A stretch of 64,000 nucleotides of DNA from Blasia pusilla (Eukaryota), in NCBI GenBank assembly GCA_050084515.1, contig CM114271.1, positions 16,926,001 to 16,990,000 of the forward strand, in the 5' to 3' direction. The notes beneath the pieces were generated by a model. The model was not told the DNA's origin and ran no database searches. It saw nothing but the letters and a program-made list of their open reading frames with translations. Shown one piece after another: positions 8,400 through 37,763 of the stretch. Each line of letters starts with the position of its first letter. Within the stretch, counting starts at the first letter, position 1. The translations under genes were made by a program, and so were the position numbers.

Positions 8400-9492
8400 T
8401 AGCCATAATGAGATCCTAAGAGCCATTTCAAAAGGATTTGAAACTCTAGTTTGAAACCCAAATCAGTCAAAAGTTCACAGCAAAATGAGCTATTTGGGCT
8501 CCAAAACTCTCATACCGCCAATTCGAGCATTCAAAGCAGTAGTTATTAATGATTCAAAAGTTGCCAGCGCATAAAGCTATTCCGGCCCTGGAAAAGCTCC
8601 TAACGCAAGAATAGATTTAAACAGCAAAATCCAAAGCATTCAGAACTCTAGTTCCAAATAAGCCAAAAGTTTCCAGTGGAATGAGTTGTTTCCGTTTTGG
8701 AGAATCTCCCATCTCAAAGAATCTAGAAAGTGCTATTGGCAATAGATCTACTATTTCCTGCGGAAGGAGTTGTTCAGGCTTTGAAAGAGCACCTACTACC
8801 AATTGAAGGTAATTTGGAACTATAGTTCCAAATTTATGTTTTATGGAAATTTAGAACTATAGATCCAATTTAGCTCAAAGGCCCCGCCTGTCCTTTGAAG
8901 TAGCAAGGCATGAGCGCTCAATTCAGTGGTGCCTCTGCCTTGGTTTGAACCCCTTGCGATGGCCATAAAGTTGACATCGGAATGTGCATTAGTGTGGAGA
9001 ATGCTCCAAGAACCAATCTAGCACATACTCCTGCATCTTGGTTTCAACCACCTCTCTTTGGGTCTTGTGTATTCTAATAAGGTGTTGCTTTTCAAGCACC
9101 CACTTCTCAATAGAAGTTGTAGACTAGTTCTACATCCATTCTCTTTTAGGTTTGTAAGTGATTACCCTCATGTACATGGTACAGTGGAAGATCCTGTCGA
9201 GATCTAATATCTTTCTGTGCTTTTAAAGTTTTAAAAGTAAGATCTGAGAGGACATAGAATTATGATTTCAAAACCCCCCATCCTCACCCCACTTGCAATC
9301 CACAAAGAATCTACAAGGTCCTCTAGGCAATAGACCTACTATTGGCCATTGAAGGAGGTTGTTCGGGCTTTGAAAGAGCATCTACCGCCAATTGGAAGGA
9401 ATTTTGAACTATACTTCCAAATTTTTGTTTTATGGCAATTTGGAACTATAGACCCAATTGAGTTCGGAGGCCCCTCGTGTCCTCCAAATAGG
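8400..9492. repeat. Degenerate tandem/dispersed repeat carrying the palindrome TTGGAACTATAGTTCCAA (left flank of element A)
   Basis: Motif variants near 8645, 8813, 8851, 9403 and 9440. The unit interrupted at 9492 resumes after 19846. Confidence 0.7.
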
Positions 9493-10010
9493 TATAACGT
9501 CTTTTAGGATAGATCGGTGAGATCTAGTAGAGCGCCTTCGTGAGTAGTGGAGGAGAGGCTCAGTAGGTCGAGGATGACTTGTTGAGGCCCCGGAAAACCT
9601 GAGAGAGCATGTTTCTCCTTCGTTTCGGCTCATTTGGAGCCATCTTGAGCAACTTACTATTTTAGGTAAGTACCATTTTGAATATATGATCGACTATCTA
9701 TTTTTGGTAAGTGGCCCTTGACCTCCTACATCAGATCAAGAGCCAAGGAGGTGACTTGGGAGAATAGGTTACCATGGAGAGAGCTTGGGAGAGAGGAGGG
9801 GTATACCTCAAGGAGAGAGAGCTTGAGAGCTCATTCTCTCTTTGTTGAACCTCTTGGCATGAAGCGGCGGAGCTATGGTCCCTTGCCTTGTGAGTGTAAC
9901 CCAAGCCTCTCATTGGGAGAGTGGGTTTGGTTTGACATGAGAGAGAGTGCACACCTTTGAGAGCTATGGTGTGAGATGGTGTAGAGAGAGATTGGATCTT
10001 ACTTTACAAA
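9493..10010 (+). repeat. Element A terminal repeat A1 (~515 bp)
   Basis: Near-identical to 19205-19722 at a constant offset of 9712. It is not followed by repeat B or by a TGG-type PBS. Confidence 0.93.
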
Positions 10011-11737
10011 GAGAGAATCAAAGAATGAAAGAGTGAGAGAGCTTCATGGGGGAGCTCGCTAGTCACTCGCTGTTTTTTCAGGTTGGGGACCGTGTTCCCC
10101 GTTCAGCGGCTCATGGGAGTGCTCACCGGAGCAAGGGCTGCTTTGATTGTTCTTTGCATTTGCTGATTTTTCGTGTGGAAGAGTGGCGCGCGGAAGCGCT
10201 GATAGAGATTGGTTATGGGGGCGGGTTGCCCCATGCTAGTGCTCTCAAGAGCACCATGTAGCTTGCTGATTTGTATTTTTACAGGTTTTACATTTTGGTT
10301 GGGAGAAATCAGCAAATTTTGTAGGAGAAAGAGACAATCCCTATCATTTTTACCGGAATGTCTAATTCCGTAAAAAGATTTGACCCGCCAAATTTTTTGT
10401 GTAGGAGAAAGAGACATTGGGCTTTATGACAATCCCTATCATTTTTTACTGGAATGTCTAATTCCAAATATTTTTTTACGCCGTTGTAGATCGTGAAGCT
10501 GTGCAAGTTGTACAACAAATGGTGCACAATTTGGAGTTGCGAGTAAAAAGTTATGGTCAATCTTGAAAAATTGCTATTGCTAGGCAATTTATAGGGTTAA
10601 ATTGTTCAAACCCTAAACCAGCGGCGGCCATCGCCATCATAGTCACCATCACCGATTACCGGTCAACCATGACCATCAACGGTCAATCATCACTATCAAC
10701 GGTCCACCGTCCGTTTTCCACCTTTTGGTTGCCATTGCCGCCATTACGGAGTGGAGGGTCTTCCACGACGTTCATTGATTCTCTGACTTGCGTCGCCACC
10801 ACATACTTTGTTTTGGCCGCTACCGTCATCGCAGTTTCGTCATCAACCAATGATGGCAGATGATCTCTGGTTATGGTGTTTGAGTTTTGATTTCATGCTG
10901 CTATGTTGTGATTGGTAGGCGCTCGACGACGATCGAGTACCGTGCCGTGACGCCCGTAGCCGCAACGCGCCGCCGATTGCCGCGTCCTGCCGCTCGTGGC
11001 CGCACCGCACCATCTTGATCACGGAGCCACACCGTCATTGTGGAGCAGAGTGTGGGTTTTTTGTTGATTGAGGAGGGTATGCCGCCAAGTGCCGCATCCC
11101 ACCATCGAGGGCCGTGCCGTTTGTAGCCGTTCTGTACCACCTGCAACGCCGCACCATTCCACTGGAACTGCACTGTCCATCGAGGAGTTTTGAGCAGCGT
11201 CAGTATGGGAGGAGTATAACTTGTTGATTGGAGGATTTGTCTCCACGATCGAGTTGGGGTCGAGATTTGCAGTTGCTGAGGAGCGACATCGACATGTGTT
11301 CAGGTTACCCATTCTGGTCCTTTACCCTGCACTCGTGAGGGATTATGGGATTTGGGTAGTTTATTTGGGGATATTGGATTGTGTGGATGCTGAGAGCATT
11401 ATTTATGTATATGGTTTAGGGGACATAGACATGTGTGGGTAGGTTGTCGATGAGATGATAGCGTGGTCGATTTTCCGCACCACGCCGATTGTTGCCGCAC
11501 GTTACACGTCTCGGGGAGGGAGAGTGTAGATCGAGTGCCGCATGTTTGGGATGAGTGATTGAGAGATTACTTGCGAGGTTGAGAGTGATTGTATGAGAGG
11601 GGCACGAGGGCCATCACGGCGTCCTTTTAAGATTTTGAGAGGCGAGGTAGTGGACGTGAGAGTAGCTTTGAAGGGTTTACCCGCATAGTGCGAGGTTTCG
11701 AGGGTCTCCATGTGAGAGATCACCTCGATCTCCTTCT

Positions 11738-13280
11738 GTGTCATCTTCAGACAAGGGGGAGCATGTAGAGGAGTGTGTTAGTGATCCACCTTACACATTG
11801 AGGGTCCTACCAGTTGGCCGTCCGAGATGGACGACCGGGGTAGAGGACCACGTAGGTTTTCGGGTGTTGTAGGCACCATAGAGCTACACGACTTCATTGC
11901 GGAGTTTAGGAGTTGGTGTGACTCACAACGGGCTAGGAACTGTAGAGAGTTCAACCCGTTTACAGCATAGAACGGTATGTTCCAGCATTTAGAGGGGGCA
12001 CCTATGGATGATTACCATGAGTTCTCCCAGAGATATGCCCAGGAGATTGAGACATGACAACTCTACTATGACCCACACTATGTGTCATGGACAGAGCCGT
12101 TCCCAGATGAGGAGAAGGAGTCAGGACAGGCTACTTCCTCTTCCACTGGTGATGTTTTAGGAGGGGTCACTCGCGCTGGAGCAGTTGCACCGTCTAGTCG
12201 GGTTCGTCCCAGGTTCAACCCCATGGTTGAGTTCGTTGCTGAGTTGAGGGCGAGCTACCAAGGGGTACGGACGGAGAAGTTGCGGAGCATCCATGACTTC
12301 CAGAGGCGCCCGGGTGAGAGTTTTTGTGAGGCTTACACTTGCTTGCGCCGGTTGATCAACGTCACTCACGGGGTGACAAAGGCTCAGGCTATCCAGTCAT
12401 GGTACGTGATGTTGGACCGGACCCTGCGGACACGGGTGCGGGAGGGGGTGCTTCTTATGAACACCTCCCCTACGTTGAGAGATGTTTTTAGGACCGCTGA
12501 GAACATTGAGCATAACATGGCGGAGGAGAGCGTAGCCACCATGGGTTTTGGGGGAGAGTAGTAACGATTGTCTGCACTACTTGTGCAACAACGTGGACTC
12601 CGAGATAGGTCGACTGTGGCACCACGAGCTCAGGGAGGATACCGGGAGGTCGTGCCACAGACTGCACCTTCATATGCGGCTCAGCAGCAGCCGCCTACTA
12701 TTACTTGTTGGTCATGTGGTGGAGCCCATCATCAGCGCAATTGCACTCATCAAGGTCATTGACGTGTGCCTCAGCATGGAGGAGAAGATGGTGCTGCACC
12801 AAGAGGTTATCAGTGTGACTATTGTCAGAGGTATGGTCATACACGCGCCAGGTGTTTCATTTTACATCCTGAGTGACGTCCGAACTGAGGGCCAGAGAGA
12901 GCACCAGAGCAAGTAGCCGGTCCGGGTGGACTAGAGATCGTGCACCAAGTGGTCCTGTTGGGGGACGAGGAGCTGGAGTTGCCCGACATGGTGGTGGAGC
13001 TGCCCATGGAGGAGGTAGAGTCCCACCACCTAGATGCGTTGAGGGAGATGCCGGGCGTGAGGCTAGGATGGCTGCTCAGATACATCATCTACAAGAGCAC
13101 ATTGCCGCTATGGCATTTAGATTACCCAATGTCGGATCCGTGGCATCGACATCATATGGAGCAGCCAGAGATATGGAGGATCCTGGTTGGATGTGCCCAG
13201 ATGGAGGCAACCGCAGTTATGACGCGTGGAGCAGCCGCAGAGTTGGATCCACAGCGAGGGGAAGCCAGGAAACAGACTAG
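11738..13280 (+). pseudogene. gag: Element A gag (capsid-like region, two CCHC zinc knuckles, RG-rich tail), disrupted
   Basis: FQRRPGESFCEAY capsid-like motif. CWSCGGAHHQRNC and CDYCQRYGHTRARC knuckles. Several in-frame stops. Collinear with ORFs in copy B (40868 downward). Confidence 0.8.
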
Positions 13281-13389
13281 GCTTCCTCTGTCTTTCACAT
13301 TGTCCGAGGCGATGAGGACCCCATCGATGGGTCCTGATCAGAGTTCCTGGAGAGTTGGTGATGTTGTTGGTGTGTAGGCACGGAGGGCG

Positions 13390-14200
13390 ATGGGAGAAGC
13401 GAGTGCGACGACTCCTATTGTTGATGCTCAGGAGGGGCATGTATCGAGCACGTTGTTGGGGGCGGCCACCATTGTGTACCGCGCTCCTTTATTTTTTGCT
13501 TCCGATGTTATGACGTTGGGGGGTACGCCCAGCGAGGCTTTTTGGCTGGCCGCTATGCTATGTGAGCGTGGAGTTGGAGTTCTTGCATCACATTTAGAGG
13601 TGATTGAAGAGGAGGTGATGGACCTGCCCTTGGAGCGAATACTCGGGCCGTCCACGTCAGATTCATGGCAAGCTGCGACTGCTAAGATGGCGGAGATGCC
13701 CGCTAGACCCGCGATAGAGCGTGCCATGGCTTCTCCTGGTGTTGTGTTGCTGGATAACCGAGGAGCGGTCTTCCAGTTGGTGAGTCCCGAAGGTAGAACT
13801 TTTAGTCCGCAGCGCGTCTTGTTGGATTCAAGAGCACAACCCCTGATGTTGGGGAAAGCGTCATTCAGAGGATTGGGCTTGACGAGAGTCGATGTGGAGC
13901 GTTGTCCATTCTGGATACAGAAATTCTTGGGTGGAGCAAGTACCACACAGTATATCACCCGACAGGAGGTCGTGGTGAGGATTCACCTGGGACATCCTAC
14001 ATATGAGTCTGTGGTGCGAGCCAAGGCGATAGTGACAGATGCAGAGTCCTACGACGTCTTGGTTGGTGGAGTAGTGTTATACCCGATGGGGTTTTCCCTG
14101 GATTACTGGGAGGAGTCAGCGTCCTACAGACCAAGATGGCAATCAGGTGATGGGCGCCTTAGCTCATTACGCATTCGATTCACAGGTGCAGTGATCACTG
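13390..14200 (+). pseudogene. Element A retropepsin-like aspartic protease
   Basis: RVLLDSRAQP (DSGA in copies B and C) and downstream YDVLVG motif. Confidence 0.85.
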
Positions 14201-14559
14201 CACCTGTGAATGTTGCTAAGGTCGCCATCTCTCGCCAAGAGAGATGGCGACCTTAGCAACATTTAGCAGTGCCATCACTTGGCCTAGTGATTTGATTAAG
14301 GGACACGTCCATGCAGAGGATACTCTCATTCCTGACATTTCTATGGAGAGGAGTGTTATGGTAGCCGCATCATTCCGTGGAGGAGAGGTGCCGCTGTGGG
14401 GCTCGACTGAGGAGCTTCGACGATTAGCAGATGAGCCCGGTCAGACCGCGTGGAGCGAGGCGTTTGCACCGGAGAGTGACGGATCTGAGGAACCCGAGGT
14501 AGCAGGGAGTGCTACGATGACACCCTTGGATACCACACCCATTGTGTGGTGTACCCCGG

Positions 14560-15480
14560 AGGAGGATATTCGAGTGTTAGATCTCTTTAGAGGGATTAGC
14601 ACCGAGTTAGTTGTTTTCTTGCAAGCAAGAGTGCAAGTACATCAGTACCTATATGTGGAGAGTGATGATGTTGCGAGGCGCGTCTCACTACGACATGTGG
14701 TGCAATTACGCTTACATTTTCCCGACTTATTGTCTGCGCCCGCGGTATAGGGGTACCATAGTTCCCTACTGAGGGATATTTTGTTGTTGGGGGCGTAGGA
14801 CTTAGAGCGGGTAGGGACCATTGATTTGGTTATTTCTGGTTGGCTATGTCAAGGCCAATCGAGTGCTGGACGAGGCAGCGGGTTGGCTGACACTCGGTCT
14901 AGGTTGTTTTGGGAGATGTTGAGGGTCTTACAGCAGTTGCAGGAGCACCAGTCTCGTTCTCCAGCCTACATTCTAAAGAATGTGCGGATCTTAGGAGACT
15001 CTAGGTCACGGGTGGTGACGAGTGCTCATCAAGTGCATGCCTCGATTGGCCCAGTAGTGTTCTTGGATGTAGTAAGTGTAGGTTCTAAAGCCCATCGCCG
15101 GCATCTATGGTGGACCAACTTGGTGCCCCATGCGGTGTTACGAAAGGCATATGCGAGAGTGGAGCGCCCCTCCCATTTGTTAGTGGATTCTATTCTTGAT
15201 CCGAGTCGTCGCTCACAGGCAGTGAGGCACGATGATCAACCACCGTTGACTGTGGTCAACAAGGTAAGCAAGCCGCGAGGAGCCTTTCCCACGCTTGTGA
15301 GTTTTTGTGCTTCCTATGCATACAAGAAGGCCGGTCCTGGCTTGGTTTGGGATGACCAAGTTTAGAGGTTGGTGGAGCCCAACGTCGATGAGAGAGAGCG
15401 GGCGATGGGATTTCCAACAGGAGTGATGGCATGGATCTTCAGCTTGGGAGTGGCTGAGCAGCGTCGGATGAGATCGCGAC
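14560..15480 (+). pseudogene. Element A DNMT3-like C5 cytosine methyltransferase domain, disrupted
   Basis: Motif I IRVLDLFRGI. Motif II YLYVESD. Motif IV IDLVISGWLCQG (GWPC in copy C). Motif VI YILKNV (ENV in copy C). Motif VIII AHRRHLWWTNL. Motif IX ERERAMGFP. Motif X is deleted here but present in copies B and C (VLGQAM / RRHVLGRAM). Confidence 0.9.
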
Positions 15481-15809
15481 AGATCACAGCGGTTGTGTTG
15501 GTGAGCCCCATGCCAACCGAGACGGTGGAGGAAGTGGCTGGGGGCGAGACCCGAGGAGATCGACACACCAGGGGAGATCGGGAGAGACACCCTTGGACTT
15601 CTTGGGATGTTTTGCATGTACGCTAGGAGATGATAGCGACAGCATCGAGCATGGTTCCGGGCACTGCATGTGGAGGAGATCAGAGTTTGCAATTGGCTGC
15701 ACGAGAGCGGTCGAGTGTTGTTGTTCGAGACGGGATTGTACCATAGCAACCACCGATATCCACGCCAGAGAGTCCTACTGTAGTCACCATGGAGAACTGG
15801 GAGCCAGAT

Positions 15810-17240
15810 ATGGGCCCTAAGTTGATAGGAGGAGAGCGGCGCCAAATATATCAGTTCCTCAAGAGTTATAGGAGCTGCTTTGCGTTTAGCATGGAGGATT
15901 TGGGTATGTTGAAGGGGCCGGAGATCCGCATTGAGTTGTCGAGTGATACGTCGATCTTTTGACAACACTACAGGTACAATGATATGGAGAGGGCTCTGAT
16001 TCAGAGTAGTAGCCAGGACTTGGTTGGAGCAGGACTAGTGGAGATGTTGCATGGGGAGTATGCATCTGCCACTGTCATGCCCGCCAAGAAGGATGTGCAT
16101 GGCAACTGGACGTATAGGCGGATGTGTGGGGATTACCGACCTATCAATTGGCAGATAAAATCCGATAGGTATGCCATGCCCACCTGTGAGGAGATCTTTG
16201 ATGCAATTGGTCACGCAAAGGTCTTCAGTTCGTTAGATTTGCAAGCCGGATACCATCAATTGCCTATCAGATTAGAGGACAGGCAGAAGACGACATTTTG
16301 GGGCATCGATCCTCATGGGAAGGATTGTTTGTACCAGTGGCGGTTCTTACCATTTGGGTTAAAGAACGCCCCGGCTGAGTTTCAGAGGGTCATGGATAGG
16401 ATCTTGGCTAGTCTGGATTTTGCTAGGTGTTATACTGATAACATCGTAGTCTTTAGCGCCACGGTTGAGGAGCATGAGCGACATCTAGAGGAGGTGTTTT
16501 GACGATTGCAATTACATGGGCTCAAGCTACATCCACGCAAGTGCAAGTTCTTTTATGACCAGATTGAGTACTTTGGTCATACGATATACCCAAGGGGCCT
16601 TGGTGTTCAACAGATGAAGGTAGAGGCTATCTCATGCATTCCACGCCCTACAAATGTGAGCCGTGTTCGCGCATTCATGGGATTGGCGAACTTCTATCGG
16701 CGATACGTTAAGGGATTCACTTTGATTGCGAAGCCGCTAACCTTGTTGACCAAGGTGGATCACGAGTGGCACTGGGAGAATGAGCAGGAGCGAGCATTTT
16801 AGTTGCTCAAGGACAGGTTGACATCCGCGCCCATCTTGAGGAGACCAATCAGGGGGCGTCCTTCCTAATTGCACACAGATTGGAGCATGTTGGGGCTTGG
16901 AGCGGTGCTCACTCAGCATGATGATGAGGGTAGAGAGTTTGTGGTGGCTTCTGCTAGCCGCTCGAGCAACGTTGCAGAGGCGAAGCACAGCTCGTATGAG
17001 GGTGAGTGCTTGGCTGTAGTGTGGGCTGTCGCGCATTTCAGGTGTTACTTATTCGGCAATCCCTTTACCATCATCATTGATCATCAACCACTGAAGTGGT
17101 TGATGGAGTCCGACAAGCTTACAAGGAAGCTTGCGAGATGGGCTCAATTGTTGCAGGAGTATGATTTTCAAGTGGTACATAGACTTGGGATGCTCAACCA
17201 AGATGCAGATGGGTTGAGTCGTAACCCATGCTTGAATCGA
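15810..17240 (+). pseudogene. pol: Element A reverse transcriptase and RNase H (Ty3/Gypsy type)
   Basis: RRMCGDYRPIN, FSSLDLQAGYHQL, LPFGLKNAPAEFQRVM, YTDN (YIDD in copy C); RNase H HTDWS..GLGAVL, YEGECLAVVWAV, DHQPL, ADGLSR. Confidence 0.95.
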
Positions 17241-17559
17241 CGAGATGCGACTGGAGCTCGATGGCATGGAGAGAGTGATGAGGAGTCAGTGCTAGGATGG
17301 CACGCGTCAGCCTATTTAGGTATGTTGGCTATGGAGAGCCAGAGTGTGGAGACTTCGATGGCGAGGTCTAGTGGAGAGTCTTTGGATCCCGAGGCCAGTG
17401 AGGAGACGCCAGGTAGCCAAGATATTCATGATGATGGAGTAGTCTTGGAGTACCTTTGTACTGGCAGCGTTGCGAGCACCGTGGATGCTAGAGACCGGGA
17501 TCGGATCTTACACCGGGCCAGACGGTTGCGTTGGGAGGGAACACATGTTTTGAGGGTGT

Positions 17560-18890
17560 GGGAGGATGGTAGAGTACGCGTAGTGCCGCATCCTATGCAG
17601 AGAGCACGACTAGTGCAGCATGCCCAACGAGGAGTTGGGTCATTTTGGGGTGAAGCGAACGTACAGCTTGCTACAGATTTAGTATTGGTGGCGAGGCATG
17701 CAGACTAACGTATAGCACTTTGTTGCCAAGTGCATGGTGTGTGATCGGGTCCGAGCATCGTTCAATGCTCCGACCGAGCATCATTCAATGCTCCGACTCC
17801 ACATTTGCATCCATTACCAATCATGGGCTTAGGGTATAGATGGAGTTTGGATTTTGCAGGACCTTCGCCTTTGACGGATTGTCATAGTCATTATGTGTTG
17901 GTGATGGTCAAGCACTTCTCAAAGTGGATCAAGTTGGTTGCATTGCCTGACAAAGCGAGTGAGGGAGTAGCTTATGCCTTCCTTGACACAGTGTTGAGTC
18001 ATTATGGCGCACCGGCTGAGGTGTTGATAGACCAAGGTACCGAGTTTCGTGGTGAGTTCCAGGCCTTGTGTGATCAAGCGCTGATCGACCACCCTATGAT
18101 TTTGCGAGATCATCCCGAGGCGGATGGATTAGGGGAGAGAGTTGTGCAGACGGTGAAGAGGGGTTTACATAAGTATGGCTTGCAGAGAGGTCACCTAGGA
18201 GATTGGGACCTCCAGTTGCCCTTGTTGGCGATGGGATACAGATTCAGCAGACATCCTTAGCCTCTTTTTCACCGTACTTACTACTTTATGGCCGAGAGCC
18301 AGATTTACCTACGGCCATTCGTCGAGATGTTGGTGAGGTGCTGGACCTTGATGACCAAGATGTATGGATGCGAGCCTGTACTCAGAGGGCTGAGTTGTTT
18401 CGGAGAGTGATGCCCATGGCGTTAGAGAACTTGGCGATTGCGCAGCATCGGAATACGTTGAGGTATGCAACTATTTGGGGTGGTGGTTATCGACCAACTA
18501 TCCGGAGGTTTCACCAGGGAGATTATGTCTACTTGCAGCAAACGACACCGACGACGTTGGATGTGACTGTAGGGCGCACTATCGTGAGAGTGCGTGACGT
18601 TTTGCCATCCGGTGTTCTCTTGCTAGAGGGACGCGATGATATGGTATGGTATGGAAGGACCATGTGCGTAATTGTGCGCCATGTCACCTTCCTAACACTA
18701 ATGGTATAGTAGATCCAAGCTTAGCAATAGTTCTTGCAGGCTTGCGTTGTATGTTGTGTGGTTCTGCCTGTGGTGCGGCCACGATACTAGTCTGTGATGG
18801 ATGTTCGAGAGGTTGGTATATGGCATGTTTGACGCCACCTCTCATTAGGGTTCCTCGGGGATGATGGATGTGTCCTAGATGTACATAGAG
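17560..18890 (+). pseudogene. Element A DDE integrase with C-terminal PHD finger
   Basis: HHCC region, WSLDFAGP, DQGTEF, ADGLGERVVQTVK. Terminal CMLC...VCDGCSRGWYMACLTPPL...W-CPRC PHD pattern at about 18742-18885. Confidence 0.92.
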
Positions 18891-19078
18891 GAGAAACTAC
18901 GTAGGTTTTGATTCTGACTTTTTTTGTGACATGGATGACAGGAGGGCGACTAACGATGGGGCCACATGAGCACCCGGACTTTCTACTCTTAGCGTCCTAG
19001 AGATGTATGTCATGGTAGGTAGGGATAGATGACTATCTGGAGTTAGAGGGACCTAACCATCAGCTAGGGGGGCGATTG

Positions 19079-19846
19079 GAGATATTTTAGTACTTCTTGT
19101 CTTGTTGTTTGGATGCCATGAGTTAGCATGGGATCGTGCGTGTTTGTATGTGTGTTCGCTGATAGCGATGTATGTTGTGTAGCGATGTGTATGCGCACAA
19201 CAATTATCACGTTTTTTAAGATAGATCGATGAGATCTAGTAGAGCGCCTTTGTGAGTAGTGGAGGATAGGCTCAGTAGGTTAAGGATGACTTGCTGAGGC
19301 CCCGGGAAACCTAAGAGAGGAGGTTTTCCCTTCGTTTCGGCTCATTTGGAGCCATCTTGAGCAACTTACTATTTTAGGTGTATACCATTTTGAATATATG
19401 ATCGACTATCTATTTTTGGTAAGTGGCCCTTGACCTCCTACATCAGATCAAGAGCCAAGGAGGTGACTTGGGAGAATAGGTTACCATGGAGAGAGCTTGG
19501 GAGAGAGGAGGGGTATACCTCAAGGAGAGAGAGCTTGAGAGCTCATTCTCTCTTTGTTGAACCTCTTGGCATGAGGCGGCGGAGCTATGGTCCCTTGCCT
19601 TGTGAGTGTAACCCAAGCCTCTCATTAGGAGAGTGGGTTTGGTTTGACATGAGAGAGAGTGCACACCTTTGAGAGCTATGGTGTGAGACGGTGTAGAGAG
19701 AGATTGGATCTTATTTTAACAAGAGATATTTTAGTACTTCTTGTCTCGTTGTTTGGATGTCATGAGTTAGTATGGGATCGTGCGTGTTTGTGTGTGTGTT
19801 CGGTGACAGCAATGTATGTTGTGTAGTGATGTGTATGCGCACGATA
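19079..19846 (+). repeat. Element A 3' B1-AT-A2-B2 split-repeat block
   Basis: B1 19079-19202, spacer AT 19203-19204, A2 19205-~19722, B2 19723-19846 (B = 124 bp, offset 644). Confidence 0.93.
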
Positions 19847-21310
19847 TAGGCGAGGCCTTCGTCTATAAAGATGTGGCGGGGCCTCTGAGTGTTCAAAAGC
19901 CCCTTTGTTTGCACCCCTCGCGATGGCCCTAAAGTTGACACTAGAATGTGTTCTTTTGGCTTAAGAAAAGCTCCTACCAAGCGCCAAAATCAGATCTTAA
20001 GAGCCAATGCAAAAGCATTCCGAACTATAGTTCCAATTGAGCTCAAACCCTCCGCCCCAACCCCATTTCCCCCCATCCCCCCTCTTGGCGGTAGACCTAC
20101 TTTTGCTTGTTGAAGGACCTATTCGGGCTTTGAAAGACATCCTACCGCCCTTTCTAGGGCATTTGGAACTATAGTTCAAATGGAAGTTTATTGAAGGACG
20201 TTTGGAACTCTAATTCCAAATGAGCTCGGAAGTATTTGGTTTCTACCGCTCGAGATAGCCCTAAAGTTGACAACAGAATGTATTGATTCAGTTCTGGAGA
20301 AGCTCCTACCGAGCGCCAAAATCGGTCTTAAATGCCAATTTAAAAGCATTCGAAACTCTAGTTCCAAATGAGCTGGAAGCTTCCGGCCCCCCTATCCTGC
20401 AAGAATCTGGAACATCATCTTGGTAGTAGACCTACTGTTGCCCGTGAAAGGAGCTCTTTGGGCTTTGCAACATCACATACCGCCAATTAAAGGGCATTCG
20501 GAACTATAGTTCCAATCGAAGTTATATTTGACTTACAGAACGTCTTCTCCCACCATAATTGAATCTTAAGATCTAATTGGACTTTGACTAAGTATTGTTC
20601 TAAATGACTTTCAACCGGTAGGGCATCTAGGGACACAATCAAAACTTAGGTTCTCATTCTACATTTGTTTCCAAACTATTGGGATCTTAGGAGCTAATTC
20701 ATGGACATTCCGAACTACAGTTCCAATCGAGGATGGGGATTTCCCTTTATTGGACGCTTGCTACGGCCGAAATTGGATCTTAAGATCCAATCGGACTTAG
20801 ACTAAGCATGGCTCCAAATGAAGTTCAGCAGGCAAGGTAGTTAGGGCCATAATCAAAACTAAATGAGGTTCTAATTCTATATTTGTTTCCGAACTATTGG
20901 GATCTTAGAAGCCAATTCAAGGACATTCAGAACTATAATTCCAATCGAGGATGGGGATTTCCCTTTATTGGACGCCTTCTACGGCCTGGATCTTAAGATC
21001 CAATCGGACTTAGACTAAGTATGGATCCAAATGGCGTTCAACAGGCCCGGTAGTTAGGGACACAATCAAAACTTAATAAGGTTATGATTCTACATTTATT
21101 TGCGAACTATTGGGATCTTAGGAGATAATTCAAATGCATTCGGAACTACAATTCCAATTGATCCAGAGGTTGGCAAAGTTGAGGATGCAAGCACTAAAAG
21201 AAAAAATTATACACACATATCACATTAAAAGTCTATCCCACAATCATTAAATGATAGTAAAATATGCACATTGAATATATCAAATTTGGAACTCAAGTTC
21301 CAATTCGGGA
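19847..21310. repeat. Continuation of the GGAACTATAGTTCC repeat region, including ~230-bp tandem units
   Basis: Motif near 20021, 20162, 20202, 20351, 20500, 20711, 20930, 21141 and 21285. Blocks at about 20500-20710, 20710-20930 and 20930-21160 are clearly homologous. Confidence 0.75.
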
Positions 21311-24300
21311 TAATTAACAAAATTCCCTGACAATCATATTGCTTCACAATCTTTAGCTTCTATTCTGTGGAATATGTTACAGTTCTCGCAATTTTTAGCT
21401 TCCATTCTCTGCAATATGTCACAATTCCCGTTGTATATATTTACAAATATCTACTAAAGAAATTATAATTGTACATATTATATTTCCAATCGGAGGAGAG
21501 TCTAATGTGTTGCTATATTTATGACATCCTCCAGCTCAACCTAGGCAACATACTTCCTTAATCCATCCTCTTCAATATGCATGTGTTACATTTCACGTTC
21601 TATTTATAAATGTAACTAATGGCATCATTGTACAATATCATTCCAGCTACCTATTATCTTCTATGACTTCTCTTCCTGCTTAATCGCAAGAAGATCTCAT
21701 CCTTGGCAATGTCGGTAACGTCCTCCGGCTCAACCTAACGGACATCCTTCTGGAATGTATCGACGTACTACTCCAACTAAACCTTGCCTCTCTCGAAGTC
21801 AGAAAAATACTCATGAAATCCACTTGGAGATCTTCCTTTAAAGCCATGTACATAGTTTGGAACTTATCATTATTCAACTTCAAATACACCTCGTCAAATT
21901 TCTCAAGTCGATATCCTTAGCCTTTGAGATGATAAAACTGAACAAATGTTGCTTCACTACGTGTAAGTTGTACCTTGGGGCTCTTACTTCCGTAGAAGAG
22001 ACACGTCACGTACAAAAAAGTATAGGGTTTTTTAATTGGAATCAGGGGAAGACTTATAAAGAGTCATGGAAGAACTTTAGGATATTTTTAATTTACGGCA
22101 TCATTTATAAAAAAAAATGGGCATTGTTAATTCACAAGGTGTACATTTAAGATGTCCAAGAAAGTAAGGGGGGTTTTTTCTTAAAATGGTGGGCACACGT
22201 GTCAACAATTTATTGGTCCACGTGTCAATCTTAGAGCTAGACCAATAAATGACATGGATTTGTTAATTCATTTTGAATTTTAAATAAATATCTAAAATTT
22301 ATATATCTAACCTTATCTTCAACGTTGGCGGGAGAGAGTGAAGCCCGCGTGGGAGAGGGAAGGAATCTAGGTCGAAGCTCGAGGAAAGGATCTTAGCTCG
22401 GGGAAAGGAATGCATCACAGCTCGGAGAAAGGATCATGGCTCGGGGAAAGGAATGCAACTTGCAAAATGCTGAACGAATGTTAAAAGGGGAATGCTAATC
22501 GTTTAGCATTCTCATTCTCATTGTCTTAGTAGCGTCCAACCAAGGCGCAAGGATTAATATGTGAAAAGAGTCACAATTTTTTGTAGATGACAGCATTTGG
22601 GTCTGGAAGACGAACGGACTCAAGAGAGACTGGCTCTCGAGAGGGTCAAGTTTCCGATATGGATGTAGTAATTATCTTCTTATTCTTGTCTAGTCCGGTT
22701 CTCAGGTAATATGCATACCTCTAGCCCGATTGTGATTATCTAGGTAGGCTGCTAGAAGATAGAATGAACAGTTGCAACTACTCCCATCGAGTTTCCATCG
22801 TATTTGCATAAAACATGCAGCTCACCTGATATGATGGGGTTGCAGGAGGCAAGGCTGAAGATTTTCTCAAGGCGTAGCTTACATTCGTGAACCCAATCCA
22901 TTGGAGCAACTACCCAACATTGATACGTTGCCGCTTCTCACTCATATATTCCGTTTGAGATACACCGACACGTAGGAGACCATACAAGCACGAAGCTTGG
23001 TTCAACGTTCTCTAGTACTAGTATGACCTCCTTAAACCAGCTTGTGCTCTAGTCTTCCATTCATTTGATCAACCCAATTATCGACTTTCCTCTATAACAG
23101 TATATTGCAAAGTTTGGCCGTGAGGAAACTCACCATGATAGTTAATTATTGTGAGGGAAATAGTGGATTACCAGCCATAAGACATGAAGTGAGCTAGAGA
23201 CTAGGATATGTGTTGAGAGAAGAAGAAATGAAAAAGGAACTATATCAAAGCAGGGAGACACTCTCATACATTATCAATGCTATCTTTGTTCTGCCTAATG
23301 GTGATCTATATGGCTTTGGAGACATGATGCACCTCATAATGGGACGAAAGCAATTAATCCATTGGATAGATGCTCAACTACTTATGTCCTTGGAGATCAC
23401 CATGCATCTTTGTCATATGTCACAAATGTCTATAGCCACTACCAAATTCATGAAGATGGCTTGAAGTGGGATGATGTGAATAGGACTGACAAGAAGAATT
23501 GAGTTGGGCCTTAACGAATTGCTTCAAAGAGAGTGCAAGTGTATTTGCATGATATGTTTGAGAGAATGGATGTTCGTCATGACAAAAGCCTAGAGACCCA
23601 ACTGTACTTGGAGGTTTGTAGTGATTATATTGTCATGGGCATACACATCGCTATACAACATACATCGTTGTCATTGAACACACACACAAACACGCATGAT
23701 CCCATGCTAACTCATGGCATCCAAACAACGAGACAAGAAGTACCAAAATATCTCCAATAAAATAAGATTCAATCTCTCTCACAACACCATAGTTCTCACA
23801 TGTATGCACTCTCACATGTCTCTCTTAATGTCAAACCAAACCCATTTTCCTAATGAGAGGCTTAGGTTACACACACAAGGCAAGCAAGACCATAACTCCG
23901 CCGCCTCATGCCAAGAGGTTCAACAAAGAGAGAATGAGCTCTCAAACTCTCTCTTCTTGAGGTATATCCCTCCCCTCTCCCAAACTCTCTCCATGGTAAC
24001 CTATGCTCCAAAGTCACCTCCTTGGCTCTTGACCTGATGTAGGAGGTCAAGGGCCATTTTAAAAAAATAGAAAGTTGATCATATACTCAAAACGGTATTT
24101 ACCTAAAATAGTAAGTTCCTCAATATGGCTCAAAATGAGCCGAAACGAAGGGGAAACTTGCTCTCTCAGGTTTCCCGAGGCCTCAACAGGTCATCCTCGA
24201 CCTATTGAGCCTATCCTCCACTACTCACGAAGGCGCTCTACTAGATCTCATCGATCTATCCTAAAAGACATGAGATTTTTCGTGCGCATACACATTGCTA

Positions 24301-24489
24301 CACAACATACATCGTTGTCACCGAACACACACACACAAAACGCACGATCCCATGCTAACTCATGGTATCCAAACAACGAGACAAGAAGTACCAAAATATC
24401 TCCAATCGCCCTCCTAGCTAGTGGTTAGGTCCTTCTAACTCTAGATAGCCATCTATATCTACCTACCATGACATACATCTCTCGGATGC

Positions 24490-26285
24490 TGTCGTATAGT
24501 AAAAGCAGCCAATGTGTAAACTCCTTCATCGTTAAGTGTTAGATAGAGTTTTATTAGTATTAAGTAAATTTTCTTAGGAAAAGAAAATTCCCATGTTTAA
24601 ACCTCTTTATGATGCCTCTTTTATGTGGGCCCAACTTTAGGAAAAGAGGTAATAAATAAAAGATAACTTTATAAAAGTAAAGCAGTGAGGTTGGTGCTTT
24701 AATGAAAAACAAAAGTAGTCTTGGTTGGTGGCTACGTTAGTTGGGGTAATTTGGAAAATATCAAGTGGATAAAAGAGGATATTTTGGAAGAGATAAGAGG
24801 AAATCTACTTTTGTCAAAATATGATTGGCTAAGCCTTGAGAGAAAGCCATGTGGCACAAGATAAGATTACTCTATTTCGTACTCTTGTGGATCCCTTGTG
24901 AGTTTATAAAGAGGAGGGACCCTCAAGGGTTTATCACCTTCTATTCCACATCTTGAGTCTCTCGTGTCACTCTTGAGTGTATGGCTTTGGGATTGCTTGC
25001 TCTTCCAATGAGAATGGATCATCTCTCTTGGGAGAATAACTTAGCCATTGATATTCTTCAAGAGGTTTCTAGAGTGTGGTGTGTGCGTGGAGATGAGAAG
25101 TTTGTCACCTTAGAGGAGTTTAGTTATACTAAAATAGTGAATATTTTGGCTTGTTTCTTTCCCAATGAGAGTGGATTACCCCTCTTGGGAGAATAATTCT
25201 GCCAAAACCCATTCTTGAGGAGAGTAGAGAATGTCTGTCAAGCATGGATAGGGTGGAGCACGAGTTGTGCCCGACTTTCCTTTCCTCAATCCATACCATG
25301 TCAAGCTAATCTTTGTAGATAGGTACTAGTTCACTCGCTATTTAGTTTACCACTTTGGGAAGGCGTTCATGAATCAGGTCATTCAATCTCCAACTCCGGT
25401 GATCCTTCCTATCGTCACATATGGAAGGACATGGGATTGTACTTTGTATGTCTTTATAGAGCGATCCAAGGATGTCAATAGGACTGCTCAAGTAGGGTTT
25501 AACAGTAGTTATGCCATCTTCCTCGTGTACAAGCGTAAAGTAGTTTATAGGGATTTTATAGTTAGGAATTTCAGGGTCCGATGTTACGAAGAAGTGATCA
25601 CCTCGGCACTTCCATTTTTGATACCTGTCGTGAGAGAATGGAGGGTATACATAATAATTTTGTATTAAAAAAGGAGAACTTCTTAAAGAGTTCACCTTGC
25701 ATCGATCATGTCTACCGCAGCTAGAAGGCCTGCCCCTACTCAAAGAAAGGCTCTCGACATGACAAATGGTGCTTCCATTGAGAGATCTTTGAGGCGGTAG
25801 ATTGTGTTTGCAAGTTGGAGTCTTATCAAGATGACTAATTTTGGGAGTACTTCATCAATGGAAACTCAGGGAGTTGAGGATCTTCTCCGAACTTTGACAA
25901 TATTGTTGAGCCAACAAGGAGGAGTTCACATCGGAGAGCAAAGATCAACAAGGGCTCTCCAAGCGATTGTAAAGAAGTTGGGGAGATTTGATGGTAGGAA
26001 CATCACCAAGTATGTTCGAGAATACGTCTATGAGATGGAGGTAAACTGTGTACCCGAAGGTGGTATGGTGTCAAGTTTTGAATTAGCTATAATACCAGAG
26101 ATCCGTAGTCAAGTAAAGAAGTTGAAAGCAGAAAATCCAAAATCCTGGGAGGAGTATGAGCAAATGCTGAAAGGAGAATTCTTCGATGATGATGTGGATC
26201 GGGTGACTAAGAGGAGTTTTCTAGAATGGATAGAGCAACGTCCAGGGAAGGGAATGACTCCAAATGAATTTTTGCGTGAGTTTAG
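24490..26285 (+). mobile_element. 5' fragment of a conventional LTR retrotransposon (LTR ~24490-25764, PBS, truncated gag ~25831-26285) nested in element B
   Basis: Starts TGTCG exactly where element-B homology stops and ends ...CATGACA. The PBS follows 2 nt later. Gag-like ORF GRFDGRNITKYVREY...SWEEYEQMLKGEF. Confidence 0.8.
25767..25784 (+). promoter_or_regulatory. Primer-binding site, probably tRNA-Thr(AGU)
   Basis: TGGTGCTTCCATTGAGAG matches the complement of the plant tRNA-Thr(AGU) 3' end as I recall it (...CTCTCAATGAAAGCACCA), with one mismatch. Confidence 0.75.
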
Positions 26286-27913
26286 GCAATGTAACCAACT
26301 GTATCCACTTCGAGAAATGCTCAACCATCACTAACACATAACGACTATGGCGCTTCGTCAAAGACAAAGGTCCTGCAAAATCCAAACTCCATCTATAACC
26401 TAAACCCATGATCGGAAGTGGATGCATTTGGCAACAAACAGTTGAACGTCAATCGACATTCCTCGCCACCAATACTAAATCTAGAGCAAGTTGTACGTCT
26501 GCTTCACTAAAAAATGACCCAACTCGCTTTGTCACGAAATATAACCAACTGTATCCACTTCGAGAAGTGCTCGACCATCACCAACACATAACGACTATGG
26601 CACTCCATCAAAGGCAAAGGTCCTGCAAAATCCAAACTCCATCTATAACCTAAACCCATGATCAGAAGTGGATGCAATTGTGGAGTCGGAGCCTTTGAAC
26701 AATGCTTGGACTCGATCACACACCATGCATTTGGCAACAAACTGTTGAACTTCAATCAACATGCCTCGCCACCAATACTGAATCTAGAGCAAGCAGTACG
26801 TCCGCTTCACTCAAAATGACCCAACTCGGTGTGGGCATGACGCACCAAACGTGATCTCTACAAAGGATGAGGCACTACCCGCACTCTATTATTTTCCCAC
26901 ACTCGCAACGCATGTGTGCCCTCCCACCGGAACTGTCTGGCTTGCTGTAGATCATATCCCGCTCTCTAGCACCCACTATGCTCGCAACGCTGCCAGTACG
27001 CAAGTACTCCAAGACCACTCCATCGTCGTGAATGTCCTAGCCACCTATCATCTCCTCACCGACCTTTGGATCTAAAGACTCTCCATCAGACCTCGCCATC
27101 GAAGTCTCAGCAATCTGGCTCTCCATAGCCAGCAAGCCCAAATAGGCTGATGCATGCCATCTTGGCACCTACTCCTTATCACTCTCACCATATCAATGAG
27201 ATCCAATCACATCTCGCTGACTCGGGCATGGGTTACGGCTCAAACCATCTGCATCCTAGTTGAGCGTCCCATGTCTATGCACCACTTGGAAGTCATACTC
27301 TTGCAACAAAAGAGCCCACCTCGCAAGCTTCCCTGTAAGCTTGCCGGACTCCATCAACCACTTAAGTGGATGATGATTAGTAATTATGGTAAAGGGATTG
27401 CCGAATAGATAACATCTAAAATGTGCGACAGCCCACACTGCAGCCAAGCACTCACCCTCATACGAGCTATAGTTTGCCTCTGCAATGTTGTTCGAGCGAC
27501 TAGCGTAAGCCACCATAAACTCTCTACCTTCATCGTCATGTTGGGTGAGCACGGCTCCGAGCTCCAACATGCTCCAATCGGAATGCAACCGGAAAGGACG
27601 CCCCCCTGATCGGTCTCCTCAATATGGGCGCACACATCAATCTATCCTTGAGCATCTGAAATGCTCTCTCTTGCTCATCCCCCCAATGCCACTCATGATC
27701 CACCTTGGTCATCAAGGTTAGCGGCTTCGCAATCAAACTGAAACCCTTGACGTACCGTCGATAGAAGATCGCCAATCCCGTGAGTGCACGAACTCGACTC
27801 ACATCTGTAAGGCATGGAATGCGTGAAATAGCCTCTACCTTCGTCTATTGCACACCAAGGCCCCCTGGATATATCGTATGACCCAAGTACTCAATCTAGC
27901 CATAGAAGAACTT

Positions 27914-30900
27914 TATCGTGCGAATCCACATCGTCATACAACATACATCGCTGACATACCATACGCACATACATACATAACATAGACGAGAGTATCCACA
28001 AACGCTAGTGTACCACAACTGAAATCCGTGAAAGACCTACTATCATAAAACACGTTTACAATCACATACAATCGAGCCAAACCCACTCCACGATGGGAGA
28101 ATCTAGGTCGAAGCTTGCAGGAAACACCATAGCCAAGAGCTCTACTCACTACCAAGGCTAACTCCCAACGCAACAGCTCAACTCAAAGAATCGATCGTTT
28201 TTGAGGGCAAGCCACCCTTATATCCTCCAACCTAAGAGCAGGCCCTACCGGGAAAGTCACCCCAAGTGAGTAACCCCAACCCTATGTATGGAACCGCATC
28301 TCTACCAAGCCACTACGGTCCTACATAAGGAATGGCCTCTACCAAAGACACCATACTCTACGACATAATCCATATGGTCATGACAATTGTCGTGTATAAT
28401 CCACATCGTCATACAACATACATCGCTGATATACCATACACACATACATACATACATAACATAGACGAGAGTATCCACAAACGCAAGTGTACCACAACTC
28501 GCCCCCTAATCAAGGCGGTTAGGTCCTCTAACTCCCAAGTAGCCCTATACATCTACTACATGCTATACACCTTCTTGGGTGCCCGAATCAGAAGGTCGGG
28601 TGCTAGGTTGCCCCATCGTTAGTCGCACATCTGTAATCCATATCATGCAAAGATCAAGTCATCTACCTCTCCTAAGTACATCAAGGACAAACCCATCTTC
28701 CAGTAGGAACAACATCCAAACGTGGAGTCAAACACATCATGTGCCAACCCCTAGAACACCGATCACACACCAACATACGGGCTGCGTTACCAGCAGACCC
28801 ACACAACACGCACTTCAAGCTAGCACGTATCATGGCTAAGCTTGGGTCAACAGTACCATCCACATTTGGAAGATGACATGGCGCACAATTACGCACATGG
28901 TCCTTCCAAACAACTCCATCACGACCCTCCAACATGAGAACTCCAGAAGCTAACACCTCACGCACTCGTAAAATAGTGCGGCTTGTCGTCACATCCAACG
29001 TTGTCGAGGCAATCTGTTGCAAATAGACATAGTCCCCCACATGGAACCTACGAATCGATGGTCGATAACCTCCACCCCGAATGGTTGCATACCGCAACGT
29101 ATCCCCTGTGTTGAGCAATGGCAAGATTCTCAAAGGTCGCTGGCATAACTCTCCAAAGAGCTCCGCCTGGCGAGAACACACCCTCATCCACATCTACGGG
29201 TCATCAAGGTTCACCACCTCACTAGACTCCCGACAATTCTTTCGGCAAGTCCGGATCTCGGCCGTATAATGTAGAAAATAAGGTGAGAAGGAAGCCAGGA
29301 TGCATGGCGATCGAACCTATACCCCATGGCTAACCATGGCAACCGAATATCCGGTCTCCAAGATGCCCTTCAGAGGCCATACTTGCGCAATGCCCTCTTC
29401 ACCCGTCGAACCACACGCTCAGCCAAACCATCCGCCCTGGATGATCTTCGAGACGTGGTCCGATGATCAATCAACGCCTTGTCACACAAGACCGAAACTC
29501 ACCCGAAACTCAGACTGGTCGGTCAAGACTTCACCTGGTGCACCAAAATGACTAAGCACTCTATCCAAACGCATACGCCGCGTCCCCCACTTGCCTTGTC
29601 CGGTAATGCCACCAACTCAATCCACTTGGAGAAGTGCTCCACCATCACCAACACATATCGATGATGTAAATACCAACGGTAACGGTCCCGCAAAGTCCAC
29701 ACTCCAACGGTAACCCAACCCCATAATAGGCAAGGGGTGTAATTGTGGTGTAGGGGCATTAAATGATGCCCTCACCCGGTCACAAACCATACAACGTGAC
29801 ACCAACTGCTGCACTTGAGTATGCATGCCACGCCACCAATATCGCCAAGGAGTAAGCTATACGTACGCTTTACCCCAAAATGTCCCAACTCCTCATGGGC
29901 ATGTCGCACAATGCGCTCTCTCTGAGCCAAATGTGGCACTACTCGTACTCTACCATCCTCCCACACGCGGAGAATATGTGTTCCCTCCAATCGATACCTC
30001 TTAGCACGTTGAAGAACACGGTCTCGCTCCCTGGCACTCACTATGCCCGGCACCCTCTTGGTCCGGGAACTCCAACACCAACACATCATCATGAATATCA
30101 CGCTGATCCGTACCACCATCTCCAACCTTAGGATGTGAAGGCTGGCCATCTACCCTCTAACTAGAGTAAGATATCATGTGGTCCTCCATACTAGAGTCCA
30201 CCCCTAACCAACATAAAAAGGCGGATGCATGCCAACCTGGCACCATCTCCTCATCAACCTCGCCATGCCATCTAGCCCCGATTGTATCCTCTTGGCTAGT
30301 ACATGGGTTCCTACTCAACCCATCAAGATCAAGGTTGGCAACTCCGGTCTATGTACCACCTGGAAGTCATACTCTGTAAGATAAGAGCCCACCGTGCAAG
30401 CTTCCCTGTAAGCTTGTCCGACTCCATCAACCACTTGAGTAATTTGGTGATCGTAACAAGGGTAAAGCTGTGTGCCAAACAAGTAACACCTAAAGTGTGC
30501 CCACCCCACACTCTTGCCAAGCACTCTCCCTCATATGAACTATAGCGCGACTCCATTTGCATTATTCGAACGACTTGCATAGGCCACCACAAACTCCATG
30601 TGCTCATCATCATGTTGTGTCAACACCGCTCCAAGTCCCAACCTACTCCAATCGGTGTGTAATCGAAATGGGCGCCCTCTGATAGGTCTCCTCAAGATAG
30701 GCGCCGCCACCAATCGGGCCTTAAGCTCCACAAAAGCTCTCTCCTTATCATCTCCCCAGTGCCACTCTTGATCTGATTTCAGCAATTGGTTCAAAGGCTT
30801 TGCCATAGCACTAAATCCCTTCACATACCTCCGATAGTAGTTCACCAATCCCATGAATGCTCGAACTCTACTCACATCTATCGGACGCGGAATAAGTGCA

Positions 30901-36803: not shown

Positions 36804-37763
36804 ACTTGCACTTGCTAGATGTAGCTTCACCCCATGTAACTGCAATCGTCGAAACACCTCCTCTAGATGTCGCTCATGCTCCTCAACCGTGGCACTAAAG
36901 ACTACGATGTCTTCAATATAATACTTAGCAAAATCCAGACCTGCCAAGATCCTATCCATGACCCTGGAAAACTCAGTCAGGGCATTCTTTAACCCGAATG
37001 GTAAGAACCCCCACTCGTACAAACAATCCTTCCCGTGAGGATCGATGGCCCAAAATATTATCTTTTGCCTGTCCTCCAATGTGATAGGCAATTGATAGTA
37101 TCCGGCTTGCAAATCCAATGAACTGAAGACCTTTGCATGCCCAATCGCATCATAGATCTCCACAGGGGTGGGCATGGCATACCTATGAAACTTCGTTTGC
37201 CGATTGATAGGTCGGTAATATCCACACATCCGCCTATCCGTCCAGTTGCCATGCACATCCTTCTTGGCGGGCGTGATAATAGCAGATCCATACTCTCCAT
37301 GCGACATCTCCACTAGTCCTGCTCCAACCAAGTCCTAGCTCCTACTCTGAATCAAAGCCCTCTCCATATCATTGTATCTGTAGGGTCGTCGAAAGATCGG
37401 CGTGTCACTCGACAACTCAATACGGATCCATGGACCCTTCAACGTACCCAAATCACGCATAGTAAATGCAAAACAACTCCTATAACTCCTAAGGAACTAG
37501 TATATCCAACGCCGCTCTCCTCCTGTCAACTTAGGGCCCATATCTGGCTCCCAAGTCTCCATCATGACTATGGTAGGACTTTCTGGCGCGGATGTTGGTG
37601 GTTGCTATGGTGCAACCCTGTCTCGGACAATAGAACTCTCATCCCCATGTGCATTATCCAGAACCATGCTTGATGTTGTGGCTATCATCTCCTGGTATAC
37701 CTGCAAAATATCCCAAGAAGTCCAAGGGTGTCTCTCTCGATCACCCCTGGTGTGTTGATCTCC

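Follow-up and report, generated by a model that had tools for sequence, protein, structure and literature searches.

The window analysed here is a stretch of 64,000 nucleotides of Blasia pusilla DNA (assembly GCA_050084515.1, contig CM114271.1, positions 16,926,001 to 16,990,000 of the forward strand). It harbors several copies of a Gypsy-type retroelement that encodes a DNMT3-like domain and bears, at its ends, split direct repeats designated A and B. Element A occupies positions 9493-19846 of the + strand, on which all of its features lie, and a repeat search combined with self-BLAST revealed the order A1-internal-B1-A2-B2. At the 5' end, the A1 repeat (9493-10010) begins with TATAACG, a mutated form of the TGTCATG of the family. 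The 3' end comprises B1 (19077-19202, terminating in CACAACA), a 2-bp spacer, AT, that separates B1 from A2 (19203-19204), A2 (19205-19722) and B2 (19723-19846, terminating in CACGATA). A1 and A2 are 95% identical over 9493-10010 and 19205-19722, and B1 and B2 are 93% identical over the aligned spans 19079-19198 and 19723-19842. The element is flanked by a target-site duplication (TSD), TAGG, with its left copy at 9489-9492 and its right copy at 19847-19850. A paralogous empty site is known for this insertion: the monomer at 8860-8990 of the flanking satellite has a single TAG[C] where element A has TAGG duplicated. A satellite-like array surrounds element A, with a monomer spacing of about 332-335 bp downstream (19851-20523) and 589 bp upstream (8717-9492), and a distinct tandem repeat of about 213 bp is localized beyond this array, 3' of element A, at 20560-21200.

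Mapping of element A on the window indicated that the minus-strand interval 42243-26284 consists of two elements and not one. Copy D, which shares 83-86% identity with element A, is split at 36803/27913 by element C, which shares 72-77% identity with element A. Element C (27914-36803, minus strand) is complete and displays the same A...B-A-B layout, with A1 at 36803-36434, B1 at 28498-28388, a 2-bp spacer at 28387-28386, A2 at 28385-28021 and B2 at 28020-27914. Its A repeats are 95% identical (aligned spans 36808-36434 and 28389-28020) and its B repeats 93% identical (28499-28398 and 28020-27923). Since C is nested in D, element A supplies the intact target of C (16540-16555, gtgcAAGTTctttt), and the comparison shows AAGT (ACTT on the + strand) duplicated directly against A1 and B2 of C, at 36807-36804 and 27913-27910; a duplication of AAGTT is also possible. 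The 5' part of element D (36804-42243, minus strand) is the counterpart of positions 10408-16549 of element A, with the DNMT region partly deleted, and the remainder beyond the C insertion (26284-27913, minus strand) is the counterpart of 16545-17960. An A repeat was looked for at the 5' end of element D and none was found. A further minus-strand segment, copy B (23631-24490), comprises the end of an internal region, a polypurine tract (PPT), B1, A2 and B2, and terminates in CATGACA. Its aligned parts are a B repeat at 24402-24275, an A repeat at 24269-23819 (extending by eye to about 23760) and a B repeat at 23754-23629, and about 90 nt of internal sequence precede this B-A-B block. Copy B possibly represents the 3' end of element D, from the rest of which it is separated by some 1.8 kb of unrelated sequence (24491-26283) in place of a counterpart to 17960-18991 of element A. 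The interval 26288-26680 holds a 143-nt direct duplication. All three of the 3' ends within the window are of the B-A-B form. The layout that an earlier note on this DNA had described for elements A and C, and its B-A-B part in copy B, was thus borne out by the repeat search and self-BLAST, as were the TSDs that the note had placed directly against A1 and B2, with empty-site support for both elements.

The coding region of element A is a degraded gag-pol (11857-18882) with many frameshifts and stops. It comprises gag (about 11857-12921), protease (PR, 13717-14181), a DNMT3-like region (14238-15680, with a PF00145 match at 14799-15365), reverse transcriptase (RT, 15963-16802), RNase H (RH, 16869-17300), the integrase (IN) core domain rve (17745-18260, E 2e-10) and a degenerate PHD finger that contains a stop (about 18740-18882). 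The order of the Pfam matches on the strand of element A is C-5 DNA_methylase, RVT_1, RT_RNaseH and rve. Among solved structures, the best match of the RT is the Ty3 RT (E 2e-27) and the top matches of the DNMT region are DNMT3A/3B. The DNMT region was found by tblastn in elements A, C and D. Three intact relatives that were scanned share the order CCHC-protease-DNMT-RT-RNase H-integrase (H2C2 plus rve)-PHD, and the PHD finger (PF00628), C-terminal to the integrase, is intact in many relatives (P0088, P0095-P0105). Chromoviruses carry a chromodomain at the position where the PHD finger sits here. Between A1 and gag lie about 1.8 kb (10011-11850, + strand) that are 80-85% conserved in element D (41563-42243). 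Pfam gave no match in the six frames of this 10.0-11.8 kb leader, nor in the gag frame 12058-12561 or two further frames of the gag region. All window copies are degraded by frameshifts and stops. They are old, degraded Gypsy-DNMT3 copies of the Ty3/Gypsy order gag-PR-DNMT3-RT-RH-IN-PHD, a lineage whose first description is from Klebsormidium nitens. The earlier note had recognized a Gypsy-like element with a DDE integrase, and this part stands, given the rve match; no match to the tyrosine recombinase family PF00589 was found in the 18 window frames and three intact relatives scanned. The note had overlooked two domains, the DNMT3-like one that lies between protease and RT and the PHD finger at the C-terminus.

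We performed searches with proteins of the DNMT region, which returned many gene models of Marchantia polymorpha, matches in Calypogeia fissa, Sphagnum, Scenedesmus and Cymbomonas, and many unnamed metagenome proteins. The Klebsormidium nitens protein KFL_009030040 (P0094) matched the query P0003 with E 3e-52 and 47% identity in the DNMT region, and has the same domain order. Relatives were read as DNA in metagenome contigs, Marchantia being known from protein models and K. nitens from a published paper and protein models. The metagenome scan gave 80 loci, six of which duplicate others, and the A and B segments were mapped on all of them. A quick RT-RH tree of 59 rows, restricted to DNMT-bearing relatives and without an outgroup, from which the six duplicates and loci with fewer than 230 aligned residues were excluded, resolved two clades, each supported at 99%. 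Elements A and C of the window group with Marchantia P0009, which is 77% identical to element A, and their nearest named relatives are from Marchantia and Calypogeia; K. nitens sits in the other clade with a large group of metagenome loci. Taken by themselves, these relatives would point to a bryophyte host, probably a liverwort.

A strict layout screen flagged 8 of 59 loci. Segment mapping placed B downstream of the integrase in 28 unique loci, and there B is followed by the remainder of a B-NN-A-B block in 12 loci, L037 among them (NN being the 2-bp spacer), and by unrelated DNA in 15, and is cut by the contig end in one. Upstream of DNMT, B was found in none of the 80 loci. Thus, among the 30 unique loci with A1, neither a canonical 5' long terminal repeat (LTR) of the form B-A nor a mirror arrangement A-B-A-internal-B was seen, and the full A+B repeat at the 5' end, which the earlier note had named as incompatible with its description, was not encountered. 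One sequence flagged by the strict screen as two loci, L029 and L033, was rejected as a B-A-B case, its repeat pair being a different repeat that lies partly inside pol; L029 is of the A-internal-B form. The A repeat of locus L077 (L077:9227-10368) measures 1.1 kb because it contains a foreign 0.8-kb sequence. Copies of this sequence, which is probably a small mobile element in its own right, turn up at unrelated positions in L008, L018, L019, L035, L064, L065 and L070. The spurious A matches that this insert causes were disregarded in the mapping.

That the window copies are old and degraded, and that element D is rearranged, could suggest an ordinary LTR element, with A as its LTR, in which B was duplicated incidentally, another element was nested or the assembly went wrong. 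However, the layout, together with its exactly 2-bp junctions, its conserved ends and the TSDs that lie outside A1 and B2, is found in two divergent window families, as well as in the 12 unique metagenome loci, which come from two deep clades, and a figure legend reports it for K. nitens (PMC5890265). An artefact or secondary rearrangement is therefore highly improbable, and the contention of the earlier note that this is the inserted form, and not a later rearrangement, is supported. The recurrence of the layout in 12 of the 28 loci with a 3' end speaks against chance.

The termini, TSDs and junctions were compared between the window elements and the metagenome loci. In the loci inspected, A starts with TGTCATG, or a variant differing by one or two bases, and the terminal B ends in ACA, in the family form CACGACA; the two termini thereby make up an imperfect inverted repeat of TG..CA type. 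The two complete window elements terminate in CACGATA, and copy B and the metagenome loci end in GACA; the ATA ending of elements A and C may reflect the same C-to-T change occurring twice or a trait of their lineage. A DDE integrase generates short target duplications, such as 4 bp. The TSD is 4 bp here, perfect in 10 of 16 complete copies and matching at three of four bases in 4 more. Among the ten complete A..B-A-B copies, it is perfect in seven (window elements A and C, L018, L025, L037, L039 and L067) and matches at three of four bases in L052, and none was seen in L026 and L056. The distance from the end of B1 to the start of A2 is exactly 2 bp, of variable sequence, in all nine aligned related loci and in both complete window elements. 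In copy B this junction is mutated and the size of the spacer is not readable.

The copies in which B is followed by unrelated DNA could themselves be the transposed unit, cut from linear complementary DNA (cDNA) at two internal attachment (att) sites, with A..B-A-B being either a minority by-product or the sole form able to replicate again. This is how 15 of the 28 unique metagenome 3' ends are built, and the six complete A-internal-B copies have TSDs that are perfect in three (L013, L051 and L068) and match at three of four bases in the other three. The two forms are also interspersed on the RT-RH tree, with 9 changes, a number as low being reached by 220 of 500 shuffles. Reasoning from the standard LTR cycle, though, an A-internal-B copy lacks R at its 3' side and would be unable to complete the first strand transfer, and the same form would result from deletion between B1 and B2 or from a short-read assembler collapsing the B-A-B loop; moreover, the three window 3' ends are all B-A-B. 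We consider it quite unlikely that A-internal-B is the true unit. B1/B2 deletion, direct integration from two internal sites and assembly collapse are all possible origins of this form.

The borders of the repeats coincide with signals of reverse transcription. In element A, a PPT, AGGGGGGCGA (19066-19075), adjoins B1, and a G-rich polypurine run adjoins the first base of B1 in the window elements and the relatives inspected; in element C the PPT is at 28507-28499. At the boundary between A1 and the internal region of element A lies a predicted primer binding site, ACAAAGAGAGAAT (10006-10018), complementary to ATTCTCTCTTTGT (9833-9845), the predicted RNA 5' end and self-primer. A TATA motif (9802-9805) is positioned 31 nt upstream of this predicted RNA start. 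The corresponding sites of element C are at 36434-36424 (primer site) and 36608-36598 (self-primer). The end of A1 is thus perfectly complementary to a site within A, located 120-180 nt upstream. The complement is 13 nt long in window element A and 11 nt in C, lengths that none of 500 shuffles reached in either case, and among 30 unique metagenome loci, 13 have a complement of 10 nt or more, a length matched by no more than 1% of shuffles. The paired sequences vary between clades yet remain complementary, and L054 shows compensatory changes (C>T / G>A) on the two sides. In 11 of 16 loci, a TATA motif precedes the internal site by 31-34 nt, and in both window elements it lies at -31. On this pairing, the arrangement is predicted to be Tf1-like self-priming. 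Self-priming of the Tf1 type proceeds without a tRNA-type primer site, the RNA start pairing next to U5, and a passage of PMC6317226 also predicts it for the plant Tcn1 clade. With no tRNA-type primer site and an RNA start predicted to pair next to U5, the window lineage would resemble Tf1/sushi elements and Tcn1 chromoviruses, but those elements have ordinary LTRs and a chromodomain, whereas the window lineage has permuted repeats, a DNMT domain and a PHD finger.

We propose that these elements replicate by ordinary reverse transcription with an LTR of composition B-NN-A, followed by joining of the cDNA ends and by integrase action at an internal junction, and put the probability of this permuted-LTR reading at roughly 55%. 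The RNA would start at the self-primer site of A1 and stop close to the end of A2, and from it the usual minus- and plus-strand transfers would yield a linear DNA of structure B-NN-A-internal-B-NN-A. The outer ends of this cDNA, where B starts and A stops, would not be of the TG..CA kind; the integrase-type ends would lie inside each LTR, tail-to-head and 2 bp apart. Joining of the right end to the left end (A|B), either in a two-LTR circle or by an end-to-end jump, would create the A2|B2 joint. The integrase would then bypass the DNA ends and cut the near-palindromic ACA-NN-TGT inside the LTR, giving A-internal-B-NN-A-B. The integrated form would correspond to a two-LTR circle opened at the junction within the 5' LTR and, since the cut falls at this internal junction, to a circular permutation of a normal LTR element. 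The earlier note had described a non-canonical element with split repeats instead of LTRs. This description goes too far: the PPT, primer site, TATA and TG..CA ends fit normal reverse transcription with B-NN-A as the LTR, of which the integrated copy would be a permuted form.

The A2/B2 joint is where the end of A, set at the A1/internal boundary, is fused to the start of B, set by the PPT; in element A the sequence GAGA is common to this joint and the primer site. The joint contains indels in five of eight aligned relatives, and the roughly 45 nt on either side align almost gap-free. In L037 about 140 nt are deleted at the joint (L037:15500-15560), such that B2 consists of the last 29 nt of B only, fused precisely to the A2 end, and the TSD, CCAC, is intact. 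Hence it seems, as far as this copy indicates, that only the terminal part of B2 is needed for insertion. The joint is unlike between element A and copy B, though their A repeats are 90% identical, and also between the near relatives L019 and L052, L026 and L037, and L061 and L077. The variable A|B joint looks like a product of end joining or of an end-to-end jump. A1 and A2 diverge by 10.4% on the upstream side of the predicted RNA start and by 11.3% on its downstream side, and B1 and B2 by 6.6% in the 5' half and 10.4% in the 3' half. The even A1/A2 values and the lack of an excess in the 5' half of B fit both copies being remade from one template in each cycle.

Stranded RNA reads carrying the same species label were mapped at 88% likeness. 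They are almost entirely sense-oriented, with a depth of about 60-290 over the internal region, B1 and A2, which drops to 20-27 over the initial 100 nt of B2 and to 1-5 past that point. Few of these reads are more than 99% alike, and the signal thus comes from related copies. Contig joints that skip about 645 bases were set aside as uninformative, single B copies having been placed partly on B1 and partly on B2. A and B are about tenfold deeper than the internal region in DNA contigs; solo forms or cross-mapping could account for this, and the depth was not used as evidence.

These elements might instead replicate in the manner of DIRS/Ngaro elements, but with an integrase. The RNA would run from inside A1 into B2, so that the joint is inherited, B1-NN-A2 would serve as template for the A start and the B end that the cDNA lacks, and the integrase would trim NN. 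PAT/Ngaro elements are defined in PMC4157794 by just such A1-B1-A2-B2 split direct repeats, the inner pair lying downstream of the coding sequence, and the RNA depth of 20-27 in B2, above zero, is as this alternative would have it. The repeat borders coincide, however, with the PPT and primer site and not with transcript ends, and no part of the repeats diverges faster than the rest, as would be expected for separately inherited halves. The unlike joints of near relatives, and of element A and copy B, also speak against it, as does the failure to find a tyrosine recombinase in the frames and relatives scanned. We judge replication of this kind unlikely.

Several observations weigh against the permuted-LTR reading, and some of them would favor the DIRS/Ngaro-like alternative. 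One is that the joints of clade 1 are uniform, those of L015, L039 and window element C being identical and that of L025 one base off. Another concerns the mirror form A-B-NN-A-internal-B, which is expected because a circle has two identical junctions, but which occurs in none of the 30 unique loci with a 5' end and in neither of the two window elements. Its absence could be due to faster loss of the longer and closer A repeats or to directional joining. Some RNA reads do reach into B2, and the joint could be inherited via RNA. The mapped reads show no site where many RNA molecules start or stop, the RNA start being a predicted one. The complement is short or non-significant in 17 of the 30 loci, mostly as a shorter match at the same position. 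The degradation of every window copy adds to these points, and the putative joining and cutting steps are drawn from anatomy alone, no intermediate molecule having been observed.

The layout itself has a precedent. KnitGypsy-Dnmt3 of K. nitens is described as having DIRS-like repeats together with the domains of a Gypsy element (de Mendoza et al. 2018, PMC5890265, Fig. 4c legend), the DIRS layout being written A-coding region-B-A-B in the same paper, and a 2026 preprint mentions "streptophytes (Gypsy-DNMT3)" in a passage. The window elements belong to this lineage, with which they share, as far as the legend describes it, a Gypsy-type pol, a DNMT3-like domain and A-coding-B-A-B repeats; they differ in host and in RT-RH clade. 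The layout at the core of the earlier note was thus already published for one alga, a relative of the window elements. The main-text parts of PMC5890265 that were covered contain no analysis of termini, TSDs, the 2-bp junction, the PPT, self-priming, the PHD finger or the mechanism. A literature search, judged mainly from listings and passages, found no paper explaining the layout. In the same material, we did not find the TGTCATG...CACGACA ends, the 4-bp TSDs, the 2-bp B1/A2 spacer, the PPT at B, or the Tf1-like self-priming site with its TATA motif.

The window lineage shares its split direct repeats with PAT/Ngaro/TOC elements of the DIRS order. Those elements encode a tyrosine recombinase, whereas the window lineage has a DDE integrase with an H2C2 zinc domain, TG..CA ends, 4-bp TSDs and a Ty3-type RT. 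DIRS-order elements are not known to produce a TSD on insertion; here, insertion produced 4-bp TSDs, with empty-site support for elements A and C. The features of Ty3/Gypsy elements that are present include the PR-RT-RNase H-integrase order, a Ty3-like RT, TG..CA ends, a TSD within the 4-6 bp range, a PPT before the 3' repeat and, as predicted, a primer site after the 5' repeat. Two identical LTRs are lacking, the 5' end having A only and the 3' end B-NN-A-B in both complete window elements. The animal group Troyka, which the earlier note had mentioned in connection with non-LTR-like termini, is no precedent for them. In the parts of PMC12440569 consulted, it has ordinary LTRs, CG..CG termini and 3-bp TSDs and is confined to animals. 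Both are Gypsy-related with non-standard termini, but the window lineage shares neither the CG..CG ends nor the 3-bp TSD.

The proposed internal junction is also reminiscent of retroviral two-LTR circles. A retroviral LTR-LTR junction forms only upon circularisation, and its role is debated; the HIV-1 integrase reportedly cleaves this junction, as does that of the foamy virus. For the latter (PFV), PMC1180852 states that the palindromic LTR-LTR junction in 2-LTR circles is cut by the integrase. By analogy, both cases would have a tail-to-head junction of two ends as the integrase substrate and processed linear DNA as the product. They would differ in that the junction of the window lineage is built into every LTR and that its DNA ends proper lack TG..CA. 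A more far-reaching proposition is that integrase sites inside the reverse-transcribed LTR constitute a built-in tail-to-head junction, and that joined cDNA ends are an obligatory, productive integration intermediate and not a dead end; this is possible, although we incline against it.

Two further features of the window were noted. An uninterrupted frame of 470 amino acids at 51734-53146 (+ strand) matches the HAT repeats of the pre-mRNA splicing factor SYF1 (E 7e-88) and, on this match, is predicted to belong to the host, as a gene or as a single long exon. At 56814-57165 lies a tandem array of roughly 52-bp period, detected as five overlapping 140-nt copies that are 63-75% identical.

In the sources consulted, publication of the layout dates from 2018 and is confined to one line of a figure legend. 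The present analysis adds an anatomy that points towards self-priming and a permuted LTR whose integrase sites are internal, a lineage that is common in bryophytes, including the laboratory model Marchantia polymorpha, and the existence of A-internal-B copies that lack the repeats. LTR annotation tools will mis-delimit such elements or wholly miss the A-internal-B form; the expectation of the earlier note that a finder pairing A1 with A2 would miss B2 and the TSD is supported. Since the lineage is transcribed in the organism of the window and is present in Marchantia, its replication is directly testable. If true, the proposed mechanism would bear on whether LTR-LTR junctions serve as integration substrates and on the origin of split direct repeats. 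It would mean that split repeats of the DIRS type can arise from an ordinary LTR cycle by moved att sites, whatever the recombinase.

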